Origin: an uncultured Alphaproteobacteria bacterium | Lineage (GTDB): Bacteria; Pseudomonadota; Alphaproteobacteria; RF32; CAG-239 | NCBI GenBank assembly: GCA_944392275.1 | Contig: CALXWA010000004.1 | Coordinates: forward strand, 20,562 to 84,561 | Length of the DNA: 64,000 nt | Direction: 5' to 3' | Part shown: positions 2,784 through 60,788 of the stretch, in pieces | Position numbering within the stretch: the stretch's first letter is position 1 | Layout: every line of letters starts with the position of its first letter | Notes under the pieces: model-generated | What the model saw: only the letters and a program-made list of their open reading frames with translations | Databases searched by the model: none | Told to the model about the DNA's origin: nothing | Position numbers and translations under genes: made by a program

Positions 2784-3671
2784 TTATGAACACCCAAACT
2801 TTTCATCAAGTAATTTTTTAGCATAATCCAAAACAACTCTAATCCTTGGATTATCCTTCGTATCACGATGGGCAATCAAATAAATTTTACTGGTAAACTC
2901 AAAATGCAAATGATCCAATGGCATTAAAATTCCTTTATAAGAATACGGACAAATACCAATCCCGACACCGGATTTCAAAACAGATTTTAAGGCCATAATC
3001 GAATTTGTCGTATAAATAATATGCTTAGCCTTGCTTAAAAATTCTCTTGGCTTTTTCAGATTCATCAGATAACCGGTTTTATAACAAACCCGATGATTTT
3101 CATAAAGATCATTCATATTCTTCGGAATACCAAACTCTTCCAAATATTTAGAGGATGCAAACAACCCAAAGCGTACATCTTTTTCAGCAATAATAACCGC
3201 ATCAGCTTCTCTTGGCGGAGCATAATCCACCAAAATATCCGTTTCCATCATAGCAATACTTGGGCGTTTATTTCCGAGAATAGTATATAAATGAATTCCC
3301 GGATACTGCTTAATAAAATCAAACAACTTTTTAGAAGAGATATCTCCGGCCGCCGAATCATTTACCGCAAAACGAACAATTCCCTGATAATTACCAACCT
3401 CATCGGCAATATCATCCAAATTTCTTAAACACTTGATGATATTATCCGCAATACTTAAAAATCTTTCTCCTTCCGGCGTAATAATGCTGCCGCGACCATT
3501 GCCGCTCAACAAAACAATTTTTAACTCTTCTTCCAAATCTCCGATATATTTGTTAATCGTATCAACCGAGACACCCAAATGTTTAGAAGCCTCTCGTTTA
3601 CTGCGACATTCCGTAAAAGCGTCCAAATACAATAAAGCGTTTAGTCGTGCAATATCTTTCTTTGTAACCAT
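2784..3671 (-). CDS. LysR-family transcriptional regulator
   Basis: N-terminal wHTH (LNALLYLDAFTECRSKREASKHLGVSVDTINKYIGDLEEEL) followed by a LysR substrate-binding domain; 295 aa. Confidence 0.75.
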   Translation of the reverse strand: MVTKKDIARLNALLYLDAFTECRSKREASKHLGVSVDTINKYIGDLEEELKIVLLSGNGRGSIITPEGERFLSIADNIIKCLRNLDDIADEVGNYQGIVRFAVNDSAAGDISSKKLFDFIKQYPGIHLYTILGNKRPSIAMMETDILVDYAPPREADAVIIAEKDVRFGLFASSKYLEEFGIPKNMNDLYENHRVCYKTGYLMNLKKPREFLSKAKHIIYTTNSIMALKSVLKSGVGIGICPYSYKGILMPLDHLHFEFTSKIYLIAHRDTKDNPRIRVVLDYAKKLLDEKFGCS

Positions 3672-3870
3672 TGTTTTTACCTTTGCACCAATGTTAAAAA
3701 AGGAAAATAAAAAAACTTGCTAAGAATAGTGAATATGTTATTTTAATATAAAAATACACCATTAAAAATTTTTAATAAAATGCACATACTACTTTAGCTT
3801 ATATCTTAAAAAGACAATATTTTCAACAAAAATAATAAAAAACAACGATTTTACAAATAAGAGTCCACAC

Positions 3871-4644
3871 ATGAAAACAACAAAACTATTTTTGCTATTA
3901 CAAATTTTTATCCTAAGCAGTTGTGTTGCCGCCAACACACCACCAGACAATTTCCACTACCAAGAAATTCAAACATCAACCTTCAAACTGGCCTCTTGGC
4001 AAAAAATAAGCTCAAACAATGCCCCCTACAAAATTTACATTGAAGGAGACGGATACGCCTTCAACCACCGAGGAAAAGCCAGCCACAACCCCACTCCCAG
4101 AAGCACAACCCTACGTGATATTGCCTTCAAAGACCCCTCGCCCAATGTCATCTATCTGGCTCGCCCCTGCCAATTTGTCAAAAACGATCCGATTTGTTCC
4201 ACTCGCCATTGGACAACAGCACGTTTTGCTCCCGAAGTGATAAGAGCAACTTCCGAAAGCGTTGAGAAAATAACCAACAATCAACCAATTATCTTAATCG
4301 GTTTTTCGGGAGGGGCTCAGGTCGCCGGATTAGTTGCCACAACCAACCCTCGCCTCCACATAAAAAAATTAATTACCATCGCCGGCAATCTGGATCACCA
4401 AGCCTGGACCAACTATCATCATCTCCCTCCTTTAAATGAGTCCTTATCTTTGGCCGATTATCAAGAAAGCTACCTCCATTTTCCACAAACACACTATGTA
4501 GGGGAAAAAGACAACGTGATGCCGCCACAATTAATCCATGACTTTGTCGGGACAGCCCATAAACAAGATGTTATTCTTGTTCCCCAAGCCGAACATAATT
4601 CCGGTTTTATGGCAATAGCCCCTCAAATTTGGCAAGAACAATAA
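3871..4644 (+). CDS. lipoprotein, alpha/beta-hydrolase fold (GxSxG serine hydrolase)
   Basis: Lipobox (LSSC) after the signal peptide, and a GFSGG nucleophile-elbow motif. Confidence 0.5.
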   Translation: MKTTKLFLLLQIFILSSCVAANTPPDNFHYQEIQTSTFKLASWQKISSNNAPYKIYIEGDGYAFNHRGKASHNPTPRSTTLRDIAFKDPSPNVIYLARPCQFVKNDPICSTRHWTTARFAPEVIRATSESVEKITNNQPIILIGFSGGAQVAGLVATTNPRLHIKKLITIAGNLDHQAWTNYHHLPPLNESLSLADYQESYLHFPQTHYVGEKDNVMPPQLIHDFVGTAHKQDVILVPQAEHNSGFMAIAPQIWQEQ

Positions 4645-4679: not shown

Positions 4680-6521
4680 TTATTCCACAGTAACCGATTT
4701 TGCCAAATTGCGGGGTTGATCGACTTCTCGTCCTAAAGCATCGGCAATAAAATAAGCCAGAAGCTGTAGCGGAATATTTGCCAGTATCGGAGACAACGCC
4801 TCATCAATTTCTGGAATACGGATAATTTCATCAAAAATCGTTACTAAATGTTCATCTAAAGAAGACGTAACAGCAATCATTTTTGCATGACGAGCCTTAG
4901 CCTCTTCACAATTTGACAACATTTTATCATACGTAACGCCTCCGGGAATAAGGATTGCTAAAACCGGCATATTTTCATCCAACAAAGCAATCGGCCCGTG
5001 TTTTAACTCTCCGGCGGCATAACCGGTAGCATTAATATAGCTGATCTCTTTGAGCTTTAAGGCTCCTTCCATAGCTGTTGGCAAATTAACCCCTCTGGCC
5101 ATATAAACAAAACTTTTATATTGAGCCAAACGTAAAGCCTGCTCTTTAAGAGCGTCCGCCTTACTCAAAACCTCATCCATTTTAGCCGGTAGTTCCAATA
5201 ATTGTTGCTTTAACTCTTTTAGCTTTTTAAGATTAGAACCTGTTTGGTGTTCGGCCCAGGCAATGGCAAACAAGTATAAAGAAATCAACTGTGCCGTATA
5301 AGATTTTGTTGCAGCAACACTCACCTCAATACCGGCATTTAACGGAATAATATTGTCTGAATATCGGACAATGCTTGAATCAACACGGTTGGTTAATGTA
5401 AGAATATGAGCTCCTTTGGCTTTTGCTTGTTTAACCGCCGTAATGGTATCCGCCGTTTCTCCGGACTGTGAAATACCAATCGTTAGCGTATCGGCCCCCG
5501 TAATAGTATCCCGATAAATATATTCGCTGGCTGCCTCTACATTAACACTGACTTTTACCAGAGATTCCAAAAGATACTTGGCCACCATTGCAGCGTGCAA
5601 AGAAGTCCCGCAAGCAATAATCTCAACCTTTGTTTTTTTCAAAATCTCATTCCAATTAATTCCTTGCAAATTCAATGGGCTATCAACCGAGGATATTCTT
5701 TCGGATAACAGATTCCGCACAATATCAGACTGTTCATTAATCTCCTTAAGCATAAAATGTTTATAACCGCGTTTACTGATTGCCTCCGGACTAAAATTAA
5801 CCACCTCGGGATTTTTGTTTAAAATATGTCCGTCAAAATCCTTAACGGTAACTTGGTTTTGCGTCACAAGAGCCATTTCGCCATCATCTAAATAAATAAT
5901 TTTTTGTACTTTGCCGATAATGGCCGGAACATCACTGGCAATAAAATTTTCATGATCCCCAAGCCCGATAATTAACGGAGCATTCTTTCGGACCGCCACA
6001 ATCTTATCCGGCTCGTCCTGATGCATAATACAAAAAGCAAAAGCCCCCTTCAAAAGCCTGACAGCTCTGGCTACTCCTTGCTCTAAAGATTGAGCAAGAT
6101 GATATTCTCGATCCACCAAATGCGTTGCCACTTCCGTATCCGTTTCTGAAACAAAATGATACCCTTGTTTGATCAGTTCTTCCTTTAATTCCTTATAATT
6201 TTCAATAATCCCGTTATGAACCAAAACCAACTTTCCATCATTGGAACGGTGCGGATGAGCGTTTTCAACCGTCGGGCTTCCATGGGTTGCCCAACGGATA
6301 TGACCAATTCCCCGTGTTGAAGACAATAACTGTTTTTTATGTTGTTCTAAAACATCGCATAAATTACAGAGTTTTCCCTTAGCCTTAAAAATATCAATAT
6401 TTTCATTATCATTCAACGCAATACCGGCCGAATCATAACCTCTGTATTCAAGATTTTTCAGACCATTAATCAACTCTTCGGCAACCGCGTTGTTGCCGAT
6501 ATAACCAACAATACCACACAT
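4680..6521 (-). CDS. glmS: glutamine--fructose-6-phosphate aminotransferase (isomerizing)
   Basis: MCGIVGY N-terminal Cys amidotransferase domain, two SIS domains, and the C-terminal ...KSVTVE motif; 613 aa. Confidence 0.95.
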   Translation of the reverse strand: MCGIVGYIGNNAVAEELINGLKNLEYRGYDSAGIALNDNENIDIFKAKGKLCNLCDVLEQHKKQLLSSTRGIGHIRWATHGSPTVENAHPHRSNDGKLVLVHNGIIENYKELKEELIKQGYHFVSETDTEVATHLVDREYHLAQSLEQGVARAVRLLKGAFAFCIMHQDEPDKIVAVRKNAPLIIGLGDHENFIASDVPAIIGKVQKIIYLDDGEMALVTQNQVTVKDFDGHILNKNPEVVNFSPEAISKRGYKHFMLKEINEQSDIVRNLLSERISSVDSPLNLQGINWNEILKKTKVEIIACGTSLHAAMVAKYLLESLVKVSVNVEAASEYIYRDTITGADTLTIGISQSGETADTITAVKQAKAKGAHILTLTNRVDSSIVRYSDNIIPLNAGIEVSVAATKSYTAQLISLYLFAIAWAEHQTGSNLKKLKELKQQLLELPAKMDEVLSKADALKEQALRLAQYKSFVYMARGVNLPTAMEGALKLKEISYINATGYAAGELKHGPIALLDENMPVLAILIPGGVTYDKMLSNCEEAKARHAKMIAVTSSLDEHLVTIFDEIIRIPEIDEALSPILANIPLQLLAYFIADALGREVDQPRNLAKSVTVE

Positions 6522-6538
6522 TTTTAAAATCCTTTAAG

Positions 6539-7057
6539 TTAAATTTGCCCCAATTCCTTCAACACGCGAAGGACGTTTTCCTTATTCCGTTTTTTTATCG
6601 GACGAATAGGTCTTCCGGCATAAACCGTCCACGGCTCAAACTTATAATTTGAGGGAACAAAACTCAAAGCTCCGATACTCACTCCTTCCGGAATATGATT
6701 ATTTGGCATAATAACGGAATTGGTCCCCACTCCGGTATATTTTTCCATAGTAACATCGCCCTGAATCTCCTTAACATTCGGAACAGAGTGCGTCACCAAT
6801 TCATTAACATAGTCATTAGAACTGAGCCAAACCTTAACCCCGGCGGCTAAACTGGAATAACTTCCCATTTTAAACTTATACTTACCATCTCCTCCGGAAA
6901 TATAAGTACCGCTTGCTATTTCACAATCAGACCCAATTTCACAAGCTGAGGAGATCCGGCAAAAATCCGAAATACGTACATTATCACCGGCAGAAACAAG
7001 TTCCGGCTTTTTAATAATTACGTATTCACCCAAGATAAAATTTTTACCACACTTCAT
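6539..7057 (-). CDS. left-handed beta-helix (hexapeptide-repeat) acyl/acetyltransferase
   Basis: Repeated [LIV]-G-x-x-x-x hexapeptide pattern throughout; 172 aa; immediately upstream of glmS. Confidence 0.6.
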   Translation of the reverse strand: MKCGKNFILGEYVIIKKPELVSAGDNVRISDFCRISSACEIGSDCEIASGTYISGGDGKYKFKMGSYSSLAAGVKVWLSSNDYVNELVTHSVPNVKEIQGDVTMEKYTGVGTNSVIMPNNHIPEGVSIGALSFVPSNYKFEPWTVYAGRPIRPIKKRNKENVLRVLKELGQI

Positions 7058-57302: not shown

Positions 57303-57959
57303 ATGAAAAAAAAGTCTGAAGATAAAATTGATGAAGATTGGATGTCGACCTATGGTGACATGGTCACATTACTTCTGTGCTTTTTTGTCATGATGGTTTC
57401 CGTTTCCAAAACAGATGTTGCTAAATTTGAGATGATTCAAGCCGGCCTAAACGAAAGCATAGGCAAACAAAGCGTCACTCGCCCGATTGAAATGATGTTG
57501 ATGGAACTTGCTGAAGATGTTCAGTCTTTAAGTGCAGAAGACAGCATTGCCTTAGGGAGCGATACGCAAGGAGTTGTAATTGAACTTGGCGATAATCTAA
57601 TTTTTGATCATGGCTCTGCTGAACTCAAACCAGAGGCTATTCCCGTGCTAAAAAGAATTGCGGCCACACTCCAATCCGAAAGATACAGCTCTTTCAATTT
57701 TAGTATTGAGGGACACACCAGTGATGAGCCGTTTTCCAGTGCTTTATACCCTTCCAATTGGGAATTATCTTCCGCACGAGCCGCCGCTGTTGCTCGCTTT
57801 TTGGAAAAAAGAGGGATTCAAAGAATGCGTCTAAAAATAACCGGAATGTATGATATTGCACCTAAATATCCCAATTTAGACCCCTATGGACAACCCATCC
57901 CGCAAAATCGAGAAAAGAACAGACGTGTGGTTATCCATGTTGAACCATCCTTTTTATAA
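57303..57959 (+). CDS. motB: flagellar motor protein MotB (OmpA-like peptidoglycan-binding domain)
   Basis: N-terminal TM with WMSTYGDMVTLLL plug/TM motif, and a C-terminal OmpA-like domain (NWELSSARAAAVARFL). Confidence 0.85.
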   Translation: MKKKSEDKIDEDWMSTYGDMVTLLLCFFVMMVSVSKTDVAKFEMIQAGLNESIGKQSVTRPIEMMLMELAEDVQSLSAEDSIALGSDTQGVVIELGDNLIFDHGSAELKPEAIPVLKRIAATLQSERYSSFNFSIEGHTSDEPFSSALYPSNWELSSARAAAVARFLEKRGIQRMRLKITGMYDIAPKYPNLDPYGQPIPQNREKNRRVVIHVEPSFL

Positions 57960-57984
57960 AAAAAGCCCTTCAGGGCTTTTTTTT
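57958..57984 (+). terminator. Rho-independent terminator of motAB
   Basis: Hairpin AAGCCCT-TCA-GGGCTT followed by T9. Confidence 0.8.
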
Positions 57985-57988
57985 TATT

Positions 57989-57996
57989 TAATAATT
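57989..57996. repeat. left copy of the 8-bp target-site duplication AATAATTA
   Basis: Identical octamer immediately outside both terminal inverted repeats; the other copy is at 60076-60083. Confidence 0.75.
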
Positions 57997-58023
57997 AGGC
58001 TCTATTAAACAATTTTGTTGAAA
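57997..58023. repeat. left terminal inverted repeat of the IS1595-family element (GGCTCTATTAAACAATTTTGTTGAAAT)
   Basis: 27-bp perfect reverse complement of 60049-60075. Confidence 0.85.
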
Positions 58024-58108
58024 TATACTCTAAATAAAATCCTTGCTAAATTATTTGATAAGAATTTACAATGTAATTCTGATTAATAATTTATGAAAAG
58101 GATTTTTA

Positions 58109-58333
58109 TTGCCAAATAATACTTTTGAAGATTTCAAAAAATTTTTAGATAATTTTCCTGAAAAATTTGAATCTTTTAATCTGGATATTAACCTTAATGA
58201 ATGTACAATTACTGTTACAATTCATTATTCCAAAACATTTACTGCTTCATTAGGAAAATTTATATGTACTTCTGATGATTTATTTCAAACATATAATGAA
58301 TTGGCTATTTTTCTTAAAGAGAGAGTTAGATAA
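58109..58333 (+). CDS. passenger ORF, 74-aa hypothetical protein (TTG start)
   Basis: Inside the IS element. AAGGA RBS 7 nt before the TTG. No similarity recognised. Confidence 0.35.
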   Translation: MPNNTFEDFKKFLDNFPEKFESFNLDINLNECTITVTIHYSKTFTASLGKFICTSDDLFQTYNELAIFLKERVR

Positions 58334-58579
58334 TAATCTTTTTATGATATTTGATTCTTTTATTATATCAGTATTGTTATTGATAGTTTGATGAATTTCC
58401 AATTTTGGAATAAATTTTACAATATTTAATTTTCTATTTTTCATAACAAAAATCTCCTAATCTTATACAAGTATTTATAAGGAGATTTTTGTTATTTGTG
58501 AATCAAATAATTTTTTCTTTGACTTTTCATTATTTAAGTTGATAATTTATCATATTGAATATCATTGAAAGGTCTAAAA

Positions 58580-59041
58580 ATGTCATATGTAAAAGGAACT
58601 CTATCAAAAGATGAGGAAATTAAAGAAGTTGTGAAACTGCATTGGTTCAATTATATTTTTACAGGTATTATAGCTTTTGTTGCTCTACTTTTTGTAATTT
58701 CTTATTTTGCAAGTGCTGAATTACAAAAAGACCCAGGAACAAAATGGATTGTTATACTTTTTGTTCTATGGGCATTATATGATTTCCTAAAATTATATAC
58801 AACCGAAATGGTTATAACCAATAAGAGAGTTATATGCAGAAAAGGCATTATTAGCGTAAAAACAGAAGAATTGAAAAATGCAAAAGTTGAGTCTATTGAG
58901 ATTAAACAATCAATATTAGGAAGAATTTTTGGGTATGCTACTATTTGGTTTTCAGGAACAGGAACATCAAAAGTAAAATTTGAAGCTGTTGATGACCCTT
59001 GGGCAATAAAAAGCCGAGTGGAGTCAATCATTGGTGATTAA
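58580..59041 (+). CDS. passenger gene: bacterial PH-domain (bPH_2, YdbS/YdbT-like) membrane protein
   Basis: Two TM helices, then a PH-like module (VITNKRVICRKGIISVKTEELKNAKVESIEIKQSILGRIFGYATIWF). The ORF-track TTG at 58565 was trimmed to the ATG at 58580, which has a GAAAGG RBS. Confidence 0.6.
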   Translation: MSYVKGTLSKDEEIKEVVKLHWFNYIFTGIIAFVALLFVISYFASAELQKDPGTKWIVILFVLWALYDFLKLYTTEMVITNKRVICRKGIISVKTEELKNAKVESIEIKQSILGRIFGYATIWFSGTGTSKVKFEAVDDPWAIKSRVESIIGD

Positions 59042-59077
59042 TTTTTTGAAGTGGTGTATTTTTACACCACTTTTATT

Positions 59078-59986
59078 TTATCCCAATAAACAATCTTTTA
59101 TCAACAAATTATTATCGGCACCTGATTTAATCCAACTAAACCAGTTCAAATAATTAGTTAAATATCGGGTGCTGATTCCGTTAAAATGCCTTACAAAATC
59201 TTTCAAACCTTTGTGATAATTGCTTACATTGTTAATATGATATTCTCCGTTTTTATGCTTACCTCGTGCTATTCTCTTATGTTGTAAATTGTGATTTTTA
59301 GCAAATTGAATATATGATTTATGGGAATCTGTTACCAAAATTGAATCTTCTTCAATCTTATTGCCTAAAACATTTTCTGTTTGTTGGGTTGTTAATCGCC
59401 CTCTACCATAAACATCAGAAATAATATTTTTGTTTCCATCCATAGCAACCATTATACCGATTTGGTAATGAGAAATACCTCTTAATTTTGCTTTACCACC
59501 TCTTTTTCTGCCTTTTATACCCTCAATTTTCTTACCTTTATGAGATTCAAGCAAAAATGTTTCATCTGCTTCTACAACACCTGAAACAGTTGTATTTTGA
59601 AACTGTTTTTTGATAGCATTTAAAACCTTATGTCTCCAACGAAAAGCAGTTAAAACAGATATACCACATTTAGGAGCAATTTTAGCAAGTGATAAACCTG
59701 TCATCATCAATTCAATGTATTTGAACCAAGTGTCATAATCTTTTTTAGTGCTGAAAAATATTGTTTTCGTATATTCAGTAAAGGTCTTACCACAATCTTT
59801 ACATCTATATCTTTGGATACCACTACTGCTACCAAATTTCTGAATATGTTTTTTTCCACAAATGGGACAAACAACACCATTTTCAAATCTTTTTACAGAA
59901 GTTTTAGATTTTTGAACTTTGCTGAAAAGATGTTTCAGTTCTTCCTCTGATAACTTTTTTAATTGCTCTAATAAATCTTGATTCAT
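59078..59986 (-). CDS. IS1595-family (ISXO2-like) transposase
   Basis: N-terminal zinc ribbon (CPICGKK...CKDCGK) and a DDE domain; 302 aa. Flanked by the terminal inverted repeats. Confidence 0.85.
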   Translation of the reverse strand: MNQDLLEQLKKLSEEELKHLFSKVQKSKTSVKRFENGVVCPICGKKHIQKFGSSSGIQRYRCKDCGKTFTEYTKTIFFSTKKDYDTWFKYIELMMTGLSLAKIAPKCGISVLTAFRWRHKVLNAIKKQFQNTTVSGVVEADETFLLESHKGKKIEGIKGRKRGGKAKLRGISHYQIGIMVAMDGNKNIISDVYGRGRLTTQQTENVLGNKIEEDSILVTDSHKSYIQFAKNHNLQHKRIARGKHKNGEYHINNVSNYHKGLKDFVRHFNGISTRYLTNYLNWFSWIKSGADNNLLIKDCLLG

Positions 59987-60048
59987 TTTACCTATCCCTT
60001 TGTTTTATATAAGTATTATAAGGGATTTTATGAAAATTGTCAAGCCAT

Positions 60049-60075
60049 ATTTCAACAAAATTGTTTAATAGAGCC
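60049..60075. repeat. right terminal inverted repeat of the IS1595-family element (ATTTCAACAAAATTGTTTAATAGAGCC)
   Basis: 27-bp perfect reverse complement of 57997-58023. Confidence 0.85.
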
Positions 60076-60083
60076 AATAATTA
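60076..60083. repeat. right copy of the 8-bp target-site duplication AATAATTA
   Basis: It overlaps the TAA stop (60081-60083) of the phosphatase gene, so the duplication regenerates the stop codon. Confidence 0.75.
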
Positions 60084-60668
60084 AAATAAATCACCGTCAA
60101 CGGCAAATTTTTCTCCGTCAAACATAAGGCAAAAAGCCGCACAATTAGGAATTTTAGCAAACGGATAATGAAAATAATTTAATAAAGAAGCCATCGTTCC
60201 GCCATGGATGGCAACACCGACAACATCAAAAGGATTATCCTTTCTTTGTGCTAAATGATGCAAAACGCCCAGAACTCGATCCAAAGCCTCTTGCTTACTC
60301 TCTCCTCCCGGAAAACGAATATCCCAACATTTCGGATTGCTCCAATTGTTAAGGACATCGGGAAACTCTTGTCGAACATTCTCTAAAGCTTCACCTTCGG
60401 CTTTACCATAAAAACATTCACGTAAATTATATTCAACCTCTACAGAAATATTGAGTTCGCGGGCAACAATTTCTGCCGTTTGGCGAGCTCTTAGCAAGGG
60501 AGAAGAATAAATAATTTGCAAATTTTTTCTTCTTAATTTTTGAGCCAAATCAAAAGCTTGCTCTCTTCCCAAAGGATTAAGAGGATAATCCATACCGGAT
60601 CCTTGCATTCTACCCAAAGAATTCAATTCTGTTTCGCCATGACGAAAAATATAAAACGCTTTAACCAT
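60081..60668 (-). CDS. histidine phosphatase (phosphoglycerate mutase) family protein
   Basis: RHGETELN catalytic motif. Trimmed to the ATG at 60668, because the longer ORF would overlap tRNA-Gly. Confidence 0.75.
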   Translation of the reverse strand: MVKAFYIFRHGETELNSLGRMQGSGMDYPLNPLGREQAFDLAQKLRRKNLQIIYSSPLLRARQTAEIVARELNISVEVEYNLRECFYGKAEGEALENVRQEFPDVLNNWSNPKCWDIRFPGGESKQEALDRVLGVLHHLAQRKDNPFDVVGVAIHGGTMASLLNYFHYPFAKIPNCAAFCLMFDGEKFAVDGDLF

Positions 60669-60682
60669 TGAAAAACTTTCAC

Positions 60683-60708
60683 AAAAAAATCCGGAACACG
60701 GTCCGGAT
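60683..60708 (-). terminator. Rho-independent terminator following tRNA-Gly
   Basis: Hairpin ATCCGG-N8-CCGGAT, followed on the minus strand by T7. Confidence 0.5.
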
Positions 60709-60713
60709 AAAAT

Positions 60714-60788
60714 TGGAGCGGGCGGCGAGATTCGAACTCGTGACTTCAACCTTGGGAAGGTCGCACTCTACCGCTGAGTTACGCCCGC
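60714..60788 (-). tRNA. tRNA-Gly (anticodon CCC)
   Basis: 75 nt on the minus strand: GCGGGCG acceptor, anticodon loop TTCCCAA, T-loop TTCGAAT, and 3' TCCA. Confidence 0.85.

Follow-up and report, generated by a model that had tools for sequence, protein, structure and literature searches.

An IS1595-family transporter insertion sequence carrying a bPH_2 membrane-protein gene and a small-ORF module in an alphaproteobacterial chromosome

The window analysed here is a 64,000-nt stretch of contig CALXWA010000004.1 from an uncultured Alphaproteobacteria bacterium. At positions 57998–60075 it contains an intact insertion sequence (IS) of the IS1595 family, 2078 bp long, with a single transposase gene and, between this gene and the left terminal repeat, two open reading frames (ORFs) on the plus strand: a gene for a bPH_2 membrane protein with a bacterial PH-like domain, and an ORF of 74 amino acids (aa), here called ORF74. 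A transporter IS (tIS), a category of ISfinder/TnCentral, is defined as a single-transposase IS that carries one or more passenger genes unrelated to transposition inside its repeats (bioRxiv 10.1101/2021.05.26.445724). Since the bPH_2 gene and ORF74 occupy this position, the assignment of the element to a known kind, the tIS of the IS1595 family, is well supported. The features of the locus, from left to right, are as follows.

57990–57997, no strand: left copy of the target-site duplication, 8 bp, AATAATTA, read from the sequence; present as a single copy in the empty site L053
57998–58024, plus strand: left terminal inverted repeat, 27 bp, GGCTCTATTAAACAATTTTGTTGAAAT; matches the right repeat perfectly and is also found in sibling elements
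58043–58072, plus strand: inward-facing promoter-like site from a promoter scan, TTGCTA-18-TACAAT (TATAAT in siblings), followed by an AAAGGA ribosome-binding site and then ORF74
58109–58333, plus strand: ORF74, an acidic 74-aa orphan with a TTG start and a predicted alpha-beta3-alpha fold; evidence from AlphaFold2, the homologue P0183, the ratio of non-synonymous to synonymous substitution rates (dN/dS) and a codon score
58280–58444, minus strand: ORF54, a basic ORF of 54 aa and uncertain coding status, with AGGAG and ATG; it converges on ORF74 and shares 54 nt with the 3′ end of that ORF
58443–58495, minus strand: conserved hairpin block (58443–58510, about 55–80 nt, in the comparison of elements), with a 15–19-bp stem that holds the AGGAG of ORF54, then a T-run; resembles the transposase promoter and leader
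58519–58546, plus strand: promoter-like site of the bPH_2 cassette, TTGACT-16-GATAAT (10/12 consensus matches)
58580–59041, plus strand: bPH_2 passenger gene, 153 aa, two N-terminal transmembrane (TM) helices and PF03703 (YdbS-like); evidence from Pfam, PHROG, homologues, hydropathy and dN/dS
59048–59073, no strand: hairpin resembling a terminator, 11 pairs and then a T-run, where the bPH_2 and transposase genes converge
59078–59986, minus strand: IS1595-family transposase, 302 aa, zinc ribbon plus DDE domain (PF12762, PF12760, NF033547, NF050000)
60015–60043, minus strand: transposase promoter, TTGACA-17-TATAAT (12/12 consensus matches), conserved in siblings
60049–60075, minus strand: right terminal inverted repeat, 27 bp, a perfect match to the left repeat
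60076–60083, no strand: right copy of the target-site duplication, 8 bp, AATAATTA; overlaps the stop codon (60081–60083) of a histidine-phosphatase (His_Phos) gene

Boundaries, insertion site and transposase of the element

The 27-bp inverted repeats are identical at all positions (27/27) and occur only twice in the window, in inverted orientation, against a chance expectation of 0; the ends of this IS lineage carry GGCTCTATTAAAYAATTTTGTTGAAA. In contigs that encode an identical MotB, motB directly adjoins the His_Phos gene with one copy of AATAATTA, and the junction reads TTTATTTAATAATTAAAACAAATCACC. Together, the inverted repeats, the duplication and this empty site reveal a precise insertion with an 8-bp target duplication. 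Many conspecific contigs carry the empty site, and the element is therefore polymorphic (filled or empty) in the population. The GC content is 21–31% inside the element and about 40% outside, and one 2081-bp contig (L008) consists of the element alone. No second copy of the IS is present in the window, no DNA match to it was found among GenBank phages, and an Rfam scan of the element gave nothing near any gathering score.

The element sits between motB and the His_Phos gene at an AT-rich 8-bp target. The insertion falls in the last codons of the His_Phos gene (60081–60749), where the target duplication re-creates the TAA stop, so that the host gene stays intact. The motB terminator (57958–57983) lies upstream of the left duplication and is separated from it by positions 57984–57989; a GcrA gene is found nearby. 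Proximity to defence islands, raised by an earlier reading of the same DNA (the original prediction), does not apply to this location.

The transposase matches DDE_Tnp_IS1595 (PF12762) with an E value of 1.2e-10 and 42 bits against a cutoff of 27, and Zn_ribbon_IS1595 (PF12760) with 26 bits against 25.4. Two NCBIfam models agree, NF050000 with 51 bits against 28 and NF033547 with 185 bits against 75. The identity of its relatives drops from 60% directly to 47%, a gap that sets these elements apart as a distinct lineage. With the repeats, the duplication and the transposase domains, the proposal that the two plus-strand ORFs are passengers of an IS1595 element stands; its inventory of the locus had overlooked the minus-strand ORF54 and the hairpin block.

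Passenger genes and the left-end cassette

The longest form of the bPH_2 reading frame (58565–59041, plus strand) starts at a TTG and encodes 158 aa. In homologues and in the output of gene callers the start is the ATG at 58580, which gives 153 aa with the N-terminus MSYVKGTLSK, and an exact-protein look-up of the 158-aa form returned no record. The PF03703 profile aligns to residues 78–144 over profile positions 2–68 of 78, with an E value of 2.3e-13 and 50.6 bits against a gathering score of 22. Hydropathy places two TM segments at about residues 23–46 and 55–75 (windows 20–49 and 56–75 score above 1.6). The anticipated bPH_2 membrane protein of about 150 aa with two TM helices is thus confirmed by profile match and hydropathy, with one correction: the accession PF10882, given for bPH_2 at the time, is not among the Pfam matches, and PF03703 takes its place.

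Homologues of the bPH_2 protein number 134 and range from 98% down to about 32% identity. The dN/dS ratio is 0.17–0.20 against copies of about 80% identity and 0.07–0.09 against copies of about 67% identity; two IS-borne copies differ by four synonymous and three non-synonymous changes (dN/dS about 0.2). In the alignment, the N-terminus and the PH-like domain are nearly invariant and the TM helices vary. Judged by these substitution patterns, the bPH_2 gene is a real gene under purifying selection. It is preceded by a GAAAGG ribosome-binding site and by the promoter-like site listed above, the sequence of which is shared with a truncated IS copy at another site (L034) and with a non-IS locus (L035), and is absent from L010, a derivative that resembles a miniature inverted-repeat transposable element (MITE). 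A PDB sequence search with the bPH_2 protein gave no match. The ring-forming oligomerization described for the 'PHb2' structure of Xu et al. 2010 was considered and set aside: PHb2 belongs to PF08000 and not to Pfam bPH_2, so this property is not simply transferable. One bPH_2 homologue of 218 aa (P0083) is fused to N-terminal zinc-ribbon domains, and a sibling IS has a zinc-ribbon membrane protein at the position held here by bPH_2.

ORF74 has no family in Pfam, NCBIfam, PHROGs or PADLOC, and neither does ORF54; GenBank phages contain no ORF74 homologue. The original prediction had described the 74-aa ORF as having no recognizable relatives, which holds at the level of families and fails at the level of sequences: three protein clusters among billions are related to it, at 99%, 91% and 44% identity. 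The first two came from a word-indexed search, the third (P0183) from an exhaustive HMMER search. P0183 also has 74 aa, is colinear with ORF74 over residues 3–73, and is encoded by a stand-alone gene that is not in an IS and has its own AAGGGAG ribosome-binding site and flanking terminator hairpins. At its locus (L063, 935–1159, on a contig of SRR33675022), these two hairpins are GC-rich and similar to each other, and the gene adjoins the 3′ end of an aspartyl-tRNA synthetase gene and a fragment similar to the N-terminal part of a DNA methyltransferase. The TTG of ORF74 aligns with an ATG start in both L010 and P0183. A structure prediction, which had been proposed for this ORF, gave a confident fold: AlphaFold2 without an alignment returned an alpha-beta-beta-beta-alpha arrangement with a mean predicted local distance difference test score (pLDDT) of 83.5 and a predicted template modelling score (pTM) of 0.71. 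No informative structural neighbour of the fold was found.

Both ORFs had been suggested to be non-coding spacer should they prove unconserved; they are conserved, with dN/dS of 0.07–0.20 for bPH_2 and the 44% identical homologue for ORF74. For ORF74, a spacer that is open by chance would fit the mere three protein clusters worldwide, the TTG start, the 21% GC content of the DNA and the frameshift in the MITE copy. We nevertheless regard this as very improbable. An open frame of 74 codons is unlikely in such AT-rich DNA, the single-sequence prediction folds well, and the ORF directly follows a promoter and ribosome-binding site that are conserved. The colinear homologue has expression signals of its own, and dN (0.45) is smaller than dS (1.27) between it and ORF74. 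The codon-usage score of ORF74 (0.37) falls within the range of known genes of these elements (0.21–0.41). Taken together, homology, codon usage and the modelled fold indicate that ORF74 is a real gene.

ORF74 occupies a cassette position that is framed by two conserved blocks. The left-end block (57998–58108, 110 nt) is 89–92% conserved in the siblings L019, L024 and L028, and in four lineages a small acidic ORF, different in each, begins 7–12 nt beyond its end. The proteins at this position (ORF_A, of which ORF74 is one) have 61–74 aa and isoelectric points (pI) of 4.5–5.3 in the four lineages. On the other side lies the hairpin block, conserved in L010, L019, L024 and L028, inside which the breakpoint of the truncated L034 is located. 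Its stem is an inverted repeat (I3) with 95% complementarity; the AGGAG in the stem is followed after 7–10 nt by the ATG of a different ORF of 44–54 aa on the transposase strand (ORF_B, here ORF54), and four variants without homology to one another have this AGGAG with a properly spaced ATG. One lineage preserves the stem through G–U wobbles that pair on the transposase-sense strand only. The 300–340 nt between the blocks hold, in each of the four lineages, two convergent, 3′-overlapping ORFs whose sequences are dissimilar between lineages. ORF54 itself has a pLDDT of 57, a codon score of 0.11 and no relatives, and its coding status is doubtful on both the model and the codon statistics.

The leader of ORF54 (58443–58510), with TTCACA-17-TATAAA and the AGGAG-sequestering stem, closely resembles that of the transposase gene (59987–60043), which has TTGACA-17-TATAAT and an ATCCCTT/AAGGGAT pairing across the ribosome-binding site. 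This likeness suggests that a control region was duplicated or is regulated in common. The 5′ arm of the pairing lies upstream of the predicted transcript start in either leader, as in the classical protection of IS transposase genes from read-through. Two other accounts of the left end were rejected: a nested second IS, given that ORF54 has no similarity to the transposase and there are no additional inverted repeats, and an integron attC-like recombination site in the hairpin, for which no integrase is present and no evidence was found.

Sibling elements, derivatives and the fate of the cargo

Transposase searches retrieved sibling elements that share the inverted repeats and have transposases 64–95% identical to the one described here. 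They come from gut and rumen Alphaproteobacteria metagenome-assembled genomes (MAGs), from human-gut metagenomes and from one 287-kb IMG/VR viral contig. Their cargo is listed below; R-M denotes restriction–modification.

L019 and L039–L042, 2267 bp: zinc-ribbon membrane protein, 93-aa protein, convergent pair of 70/45 aa
L024, 2382 bp: DUF805 multi-TM protein, pair of 61/47 aa
L028, 1946 bp: 133-aa protein, pair of 65/44 aa
L026 (3412–6885), 3474 bp: complete type II R-M system that includes a C protein
L043–L052: a second, different and likewise complete type II R-M system of MamI-type restriction endonuclease, N6/N4 methyltransferase, helix-turn-helix C protein
L020, 2161 bp: lipoprotein-like protein; more ORFs on the other side of the transposase gene
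L025, incomplete: lipoprotein-like protein; additional DNA on the opposite side of the transposase gene

The survey of other IS copies that had been proposed thus did not recover the same gene pair: the siblings carry unrelated cargo. An all-against-all comparison left three conserved parts, namely the right end with the transposase gene, the hairpin block and the left-end 110 nt. The R-M components of L026 match PADLOC profiles for a type II restriction endonuclease, a methyltransferase and a control protein with E values of 1e-128, 1e-140 and 9e-21. Only 4 nt separate the transposase stop from the methyltransferase start in the P0134 lineage. All complete copies, siblings as well as the MITE (six further copies), bear an 8-bp AT-rich duplication of their own. 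The L019-type element is found with identical cargo at two sites, with the duplications AAAACAAA and TAATTATA and five differences in 2267 bp, which indicates that the cargo-laden unit moves as a whole. The small ORFs of the siblings gave no dN/dS signal because the copies are nearly identical. In the 287-kb viral contig (L024, IMGVR_UViG_3300045988_152025), the sibling with the DUF805 cargo, whose transposase is 91% identical, interrupts a D12-class Dam DNA methyltransferase gene, the two halves of which lie at 3453–3926 and 6263–6619, and is flanked by the duplication AAAAATTT.

Two derivatives separate the passengers. L010 (4950–5613 of ERZ16268230 scaffold_11602) is a 664-bp MITE-like element with both inverted repeats and the 8-bp duplication ATTTTTTA; it retains 58104–58527 at 96% identity and is devoid of 58528–59082 and of the transposase core. 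Its ORF74 copy has a frameshift and six non-synonymous changes against one synonymous change. The surrounding contig is phage-like, with Mtd_N, dUTPase, two N6/N4 methyltransferases and a tail-fibre-like gene. In L034, which lies at a different site, the bPH_2 gene (98% amino-acid identity) and the transposase gene are preserved; this copy is truncated inside the hairpin and lacks the left repeat. With ORF74 present without bPH_2 in the former and bPH_2 without ORF74 in the latter, the passengers are independent modules and not a pair. Outside any IS, L035 shares the sequence of the bPH_2 cassette from about 58511, and L012–L017 show 83% nucleotide identity over exactly 58542–59041. The simplest history compatible with these alignments is that an ancestral element of about 1.5 kb, consisting of left end, small-ORF cassette, hairpin and transposase gene, later gained the bPH_2 cassette.

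Such a history could also be one of neutral cargo, in which the passengers are hitch-hikers acquired by illegitimate recombination and the IS persists by its own transposition alone. Nearly every sibling differs in cargo, as if capture were frequent and mostly inconsequential; the IS is polymorphic, with many conspecific contigs at the empty site; the window holds a single copy; and the MITE copy of ORF74 combines its six-to-one excess of non-synonymous changes with a frameshift. We consider neutrality unlikely, however. The IS-borne bPH_2 gene has an intact promoter, ribosome-binding site and frame, with dN/dS values of about 0.2 for the IS-borne pair and 0.17–0.20 against non-IS copies. The left-end promoter and ribosome-binding site are conserved before each variant small ORF, and the R-M systems of the siblings, a kind of cargo that is not neutral, are complete and intact with their controller genes.

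Another reading sees ORF74, ORF54 and the hairpin as a module that serves the element itself, either through addiction (toxin–antitoxin-like, with antisense overlap) or through transposition control or immunity. Consistent with it, a variable cassette of 300–340 nt lies between conserved blocks, each with inward promoter and ribosome-binding site, in four lineages; the hairpin sequesters the AGGAG of ORF54, with G–U wobbles on one strand only, behind a leader resembling that of the transposase; and the ORF_A proteins are all acidic. Moreover, nothing else of the interior of the element survives in the non-autonomous MITE, in which this part is 96% identical. We nonetheless give this reading a low probability. 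There is no match to a toxin–antitoxin, defence or regulator family. Grand average of hydropathy values of −0.29 (ORF74) and −0.26 (ORF54) are non-hydrophobic and do not fit a classical type I toxin, and a convergent arrangement is not the co-directional operon of a type II system. ORF54 folds poorly and has weak coding statistics, and ORF74 is frameshifted in the MITE. The L020, L026 and P0134 elements are without the module, L034 has lost it, and P0183 stands alone, with neither partner nor IS.

Possible roles of the bPH_2 cargo and relation to known systems

We consider it probable that the locus holds a tIS that was recently inserted in a gut alphaproteobacterium and has two independent passenger modules, and that part of the reading is well supported; a protective bPH_2 cargo is the tentative part. 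The transposase, expressed from the consensus promoter at the right end, would act on the 27-bp repeats and move the whole unit with its cargo. The first module would occupy an ancestral slot at the left end, where the conserved promoter, which faces inward, and its ribosome-binding site would express a small acidic protein. In this copy the protein is ORF74; its coding sequence is completely different from sibling to sibling. The second module would be a later-acquired, self-contained bPH_2 cassette of promoter and gene, with the hairpin block on one side and the 3′ end of the transposase gene on the other. The bPH_2 protein is predicted to be anchored in the inner membrane by its two TM helices, with the PH-like domain probably in the cytoplasm, and may act like a phage 'moron' by blocking superinfecting phages or membrane-active peptides. 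It would be this protective benefit, and not a role in transposition, that retains the element in part of the population. The expression signals and the membrane topology in this scheme are predictions read from the DNA.

The role of the bPH_2 protein as a moron-like envelope protector, by phage exclusion or by tolerance of membrane-active peptides, is, taken alone, somewhat less likely than not. The protein matches phrog_3707, annotated as 'membrane-flanked domain' in the category moron, over its full length (E 1.2e-24). Searches with tblastn found bPH_2 matches in 278 phage records, mostly large lytic enterobacterial phages, at 29–33% identity over 86–100% of the length. The R-M cargo of the siblings fits a defence theme and is counted toward the protective reading. 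In characterized relatives, ydbST belongs to the sigma-W envelope-stress regulon (PMC3498285), and ydbT/ydbS mutations alter susceptibility to antimicrobial peptides in S. aureus (bioRxiv 10.64898/2026.07.05.736553).

The closest non-IS homologue (80% amino-acid identity) is part of a four-gene cluster in L012 (3269–5921 of ERZ16268177 scaffold_637). Its members are a tRNA_anti-like OB-fold protein with a weak Sie-like PHROG match, a PLDc_2 nuclease (DrmC-like), bPH_2 and a phrog_2412 protein, and the cluster adjoins Bro-N and HTH_17 genes. From its composition, it may be a prophage moron or a defence cluster.

Several observations weigh against the preferred reading. Orthologues 67–68% identical to the bPH_2 protein adjoin rpsF-rpsR-rplI in two alphaproteobacterial MAGs (L018, 5001–5495; L036, 4001–4462). 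A housekeeping membrane role suits this core context as well as defence does, and the conserved position hints at such a role for the bPH_2 family. In PADLOC-DB v2, neither bPH_2 nor ORF74 nor ORF54 matches a defence component. The IS and its flanks contain no YdbT/DdF-like multi-PH partner (three bPH_2 domains, about six TM segments), no bacteriocin gene and no ABC transporter gene. In L020 and L025, cargo also lies on the other side of the transposase gene, so the slot does not apply to every element. All exact transposase copies retrieved lie at the same insertion site and so give no sign of movement by the copy in the window, and promoters and terminators were called by consensus matches only.

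In Enterococcus faecalis, DdE and DdF, a small bPH_2 protein and its large multi-PH partner, are required for export of the leaderless enterocin DD14 (EntDD14; PMC8657885). The IS-borne protein has the same architecture as YdbS and DdE, with about 150 aa, two TM helices and one bPH_2 domain (PMC8657885), and might by this likeness be an export or self-immunity part for a membrane-active peptide (bacteriocin), as in Firmicutes. We hold this to be quite improbable, because the partner, bacteriocin and transporter genes are lacking in the IS and its flanks and beside the homologues, where no YdbT/DdF-like partner was found either; the host is a Gram-negative alphaproteobacterium; and lytic phages carry the bPH_2 family singly.

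Returning to the tIS with a protective bPH_2 cargo, a bolder and less probable extension can be formulated, to which we attach little weight. The lineage could be a cargo-exchange platform, in which conserved inward promoters at both ends and the hairpin block delimit cassette positions, and recombination at these conserved blocks exchanges unrelated genes among near-identical backbones. ORF_A/ORF_B, retained even in the MITE, would then be a fast-diversifying addiction or immunity module that serves the element, and the second position would take anti-phage or envelope cargo (R-M, bPH_2, DUF805), with bPH_2 as an unrecognized phage-exclusion determinant common to bacteria, IS and lytic phages.

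If bPH_2 is only a hitch-hiker, the finding amounts to ordinary IS polymorphism. Elements of the tIS kind blur the boundary between IS and transposons, and few have been examined closely. The present lineage offers a compact natural series, with near-identical backbones, at least seven cargos, a MITE derivative and a copy in a giant-phage contig, that could reveal how minimal transposons acquire and exchange genes and shuttle them between gut bacteria and phages. In addition, the 560-bp self-contained, naturally mobile cassette provides a handle on the solitary two-TM bPH_2 proteins, which occur widely among bacteria and in the genomes of hundreds of phages. The searches made turned up no earlier description of four features: tIS cargo in the form of a bPH_2 gene, a series of near-identical backbones in which the cargo is replaced, internal promoter and hairpin blocks that are conserved, and a convergent small-ORF cassette that varies between elements and is retained by a MITE.

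The element resembles known IS1595 tIS in its single transposase with zinc ribbon and DDE domain, its short terminal repeats, its 8-bp duplication and its internal passengers. It differs from them in that the lineage stems from gut and rumen Alphaproteobacteria and their phages and diverges by more than 50% from the closest transposases outside it, in that cargo is replaced between near-identical backbones, and in that the internal promoter and hairpin blocks are conserved. Mobile R-M units that resemble transposons and have inverted repeats and 8-bp duplications have been described (Furuta, Abe & Kobayashi 2010, PMC2853133). L026 and L043–L052 are likewise R-M systems bounded by inverted repeats with 8-bp duplications; unlike those units, the siblings encode their own transposase, and the copy in the window has no R-M system. 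L010 resembles IS-derived MITEs in having both repeats and an 8-bp duplication but no transposase, whereas it retains a complete passenger module (ORF74/ORF54 and hairpin) and not the ends alone. The phrog_3707 proteins of Salmonella phages Maynard and Marshall and of Dickeya phage LIMEstone1 are, like the IS-borne bPH_2 protein, products of solitary small membrane genes on mobile genomes; theirs are lytic enterobacterial phages, whereas the gene described here is on an IS in a bacterial chromosome. Finally, YdbS of Bacillus subtilis and DdE of E. faecalis share with it a length of about 150 aa and an architecture of two TM helices at the N-terminus plus a single PF03703 domain (PMC8657885), a similarity that is at profile level only; in contrast to them, the IS-borne gene belongs to a proteobacterial host and has no adjacent YdbT/DdF, bacteriocin or ABC genes.

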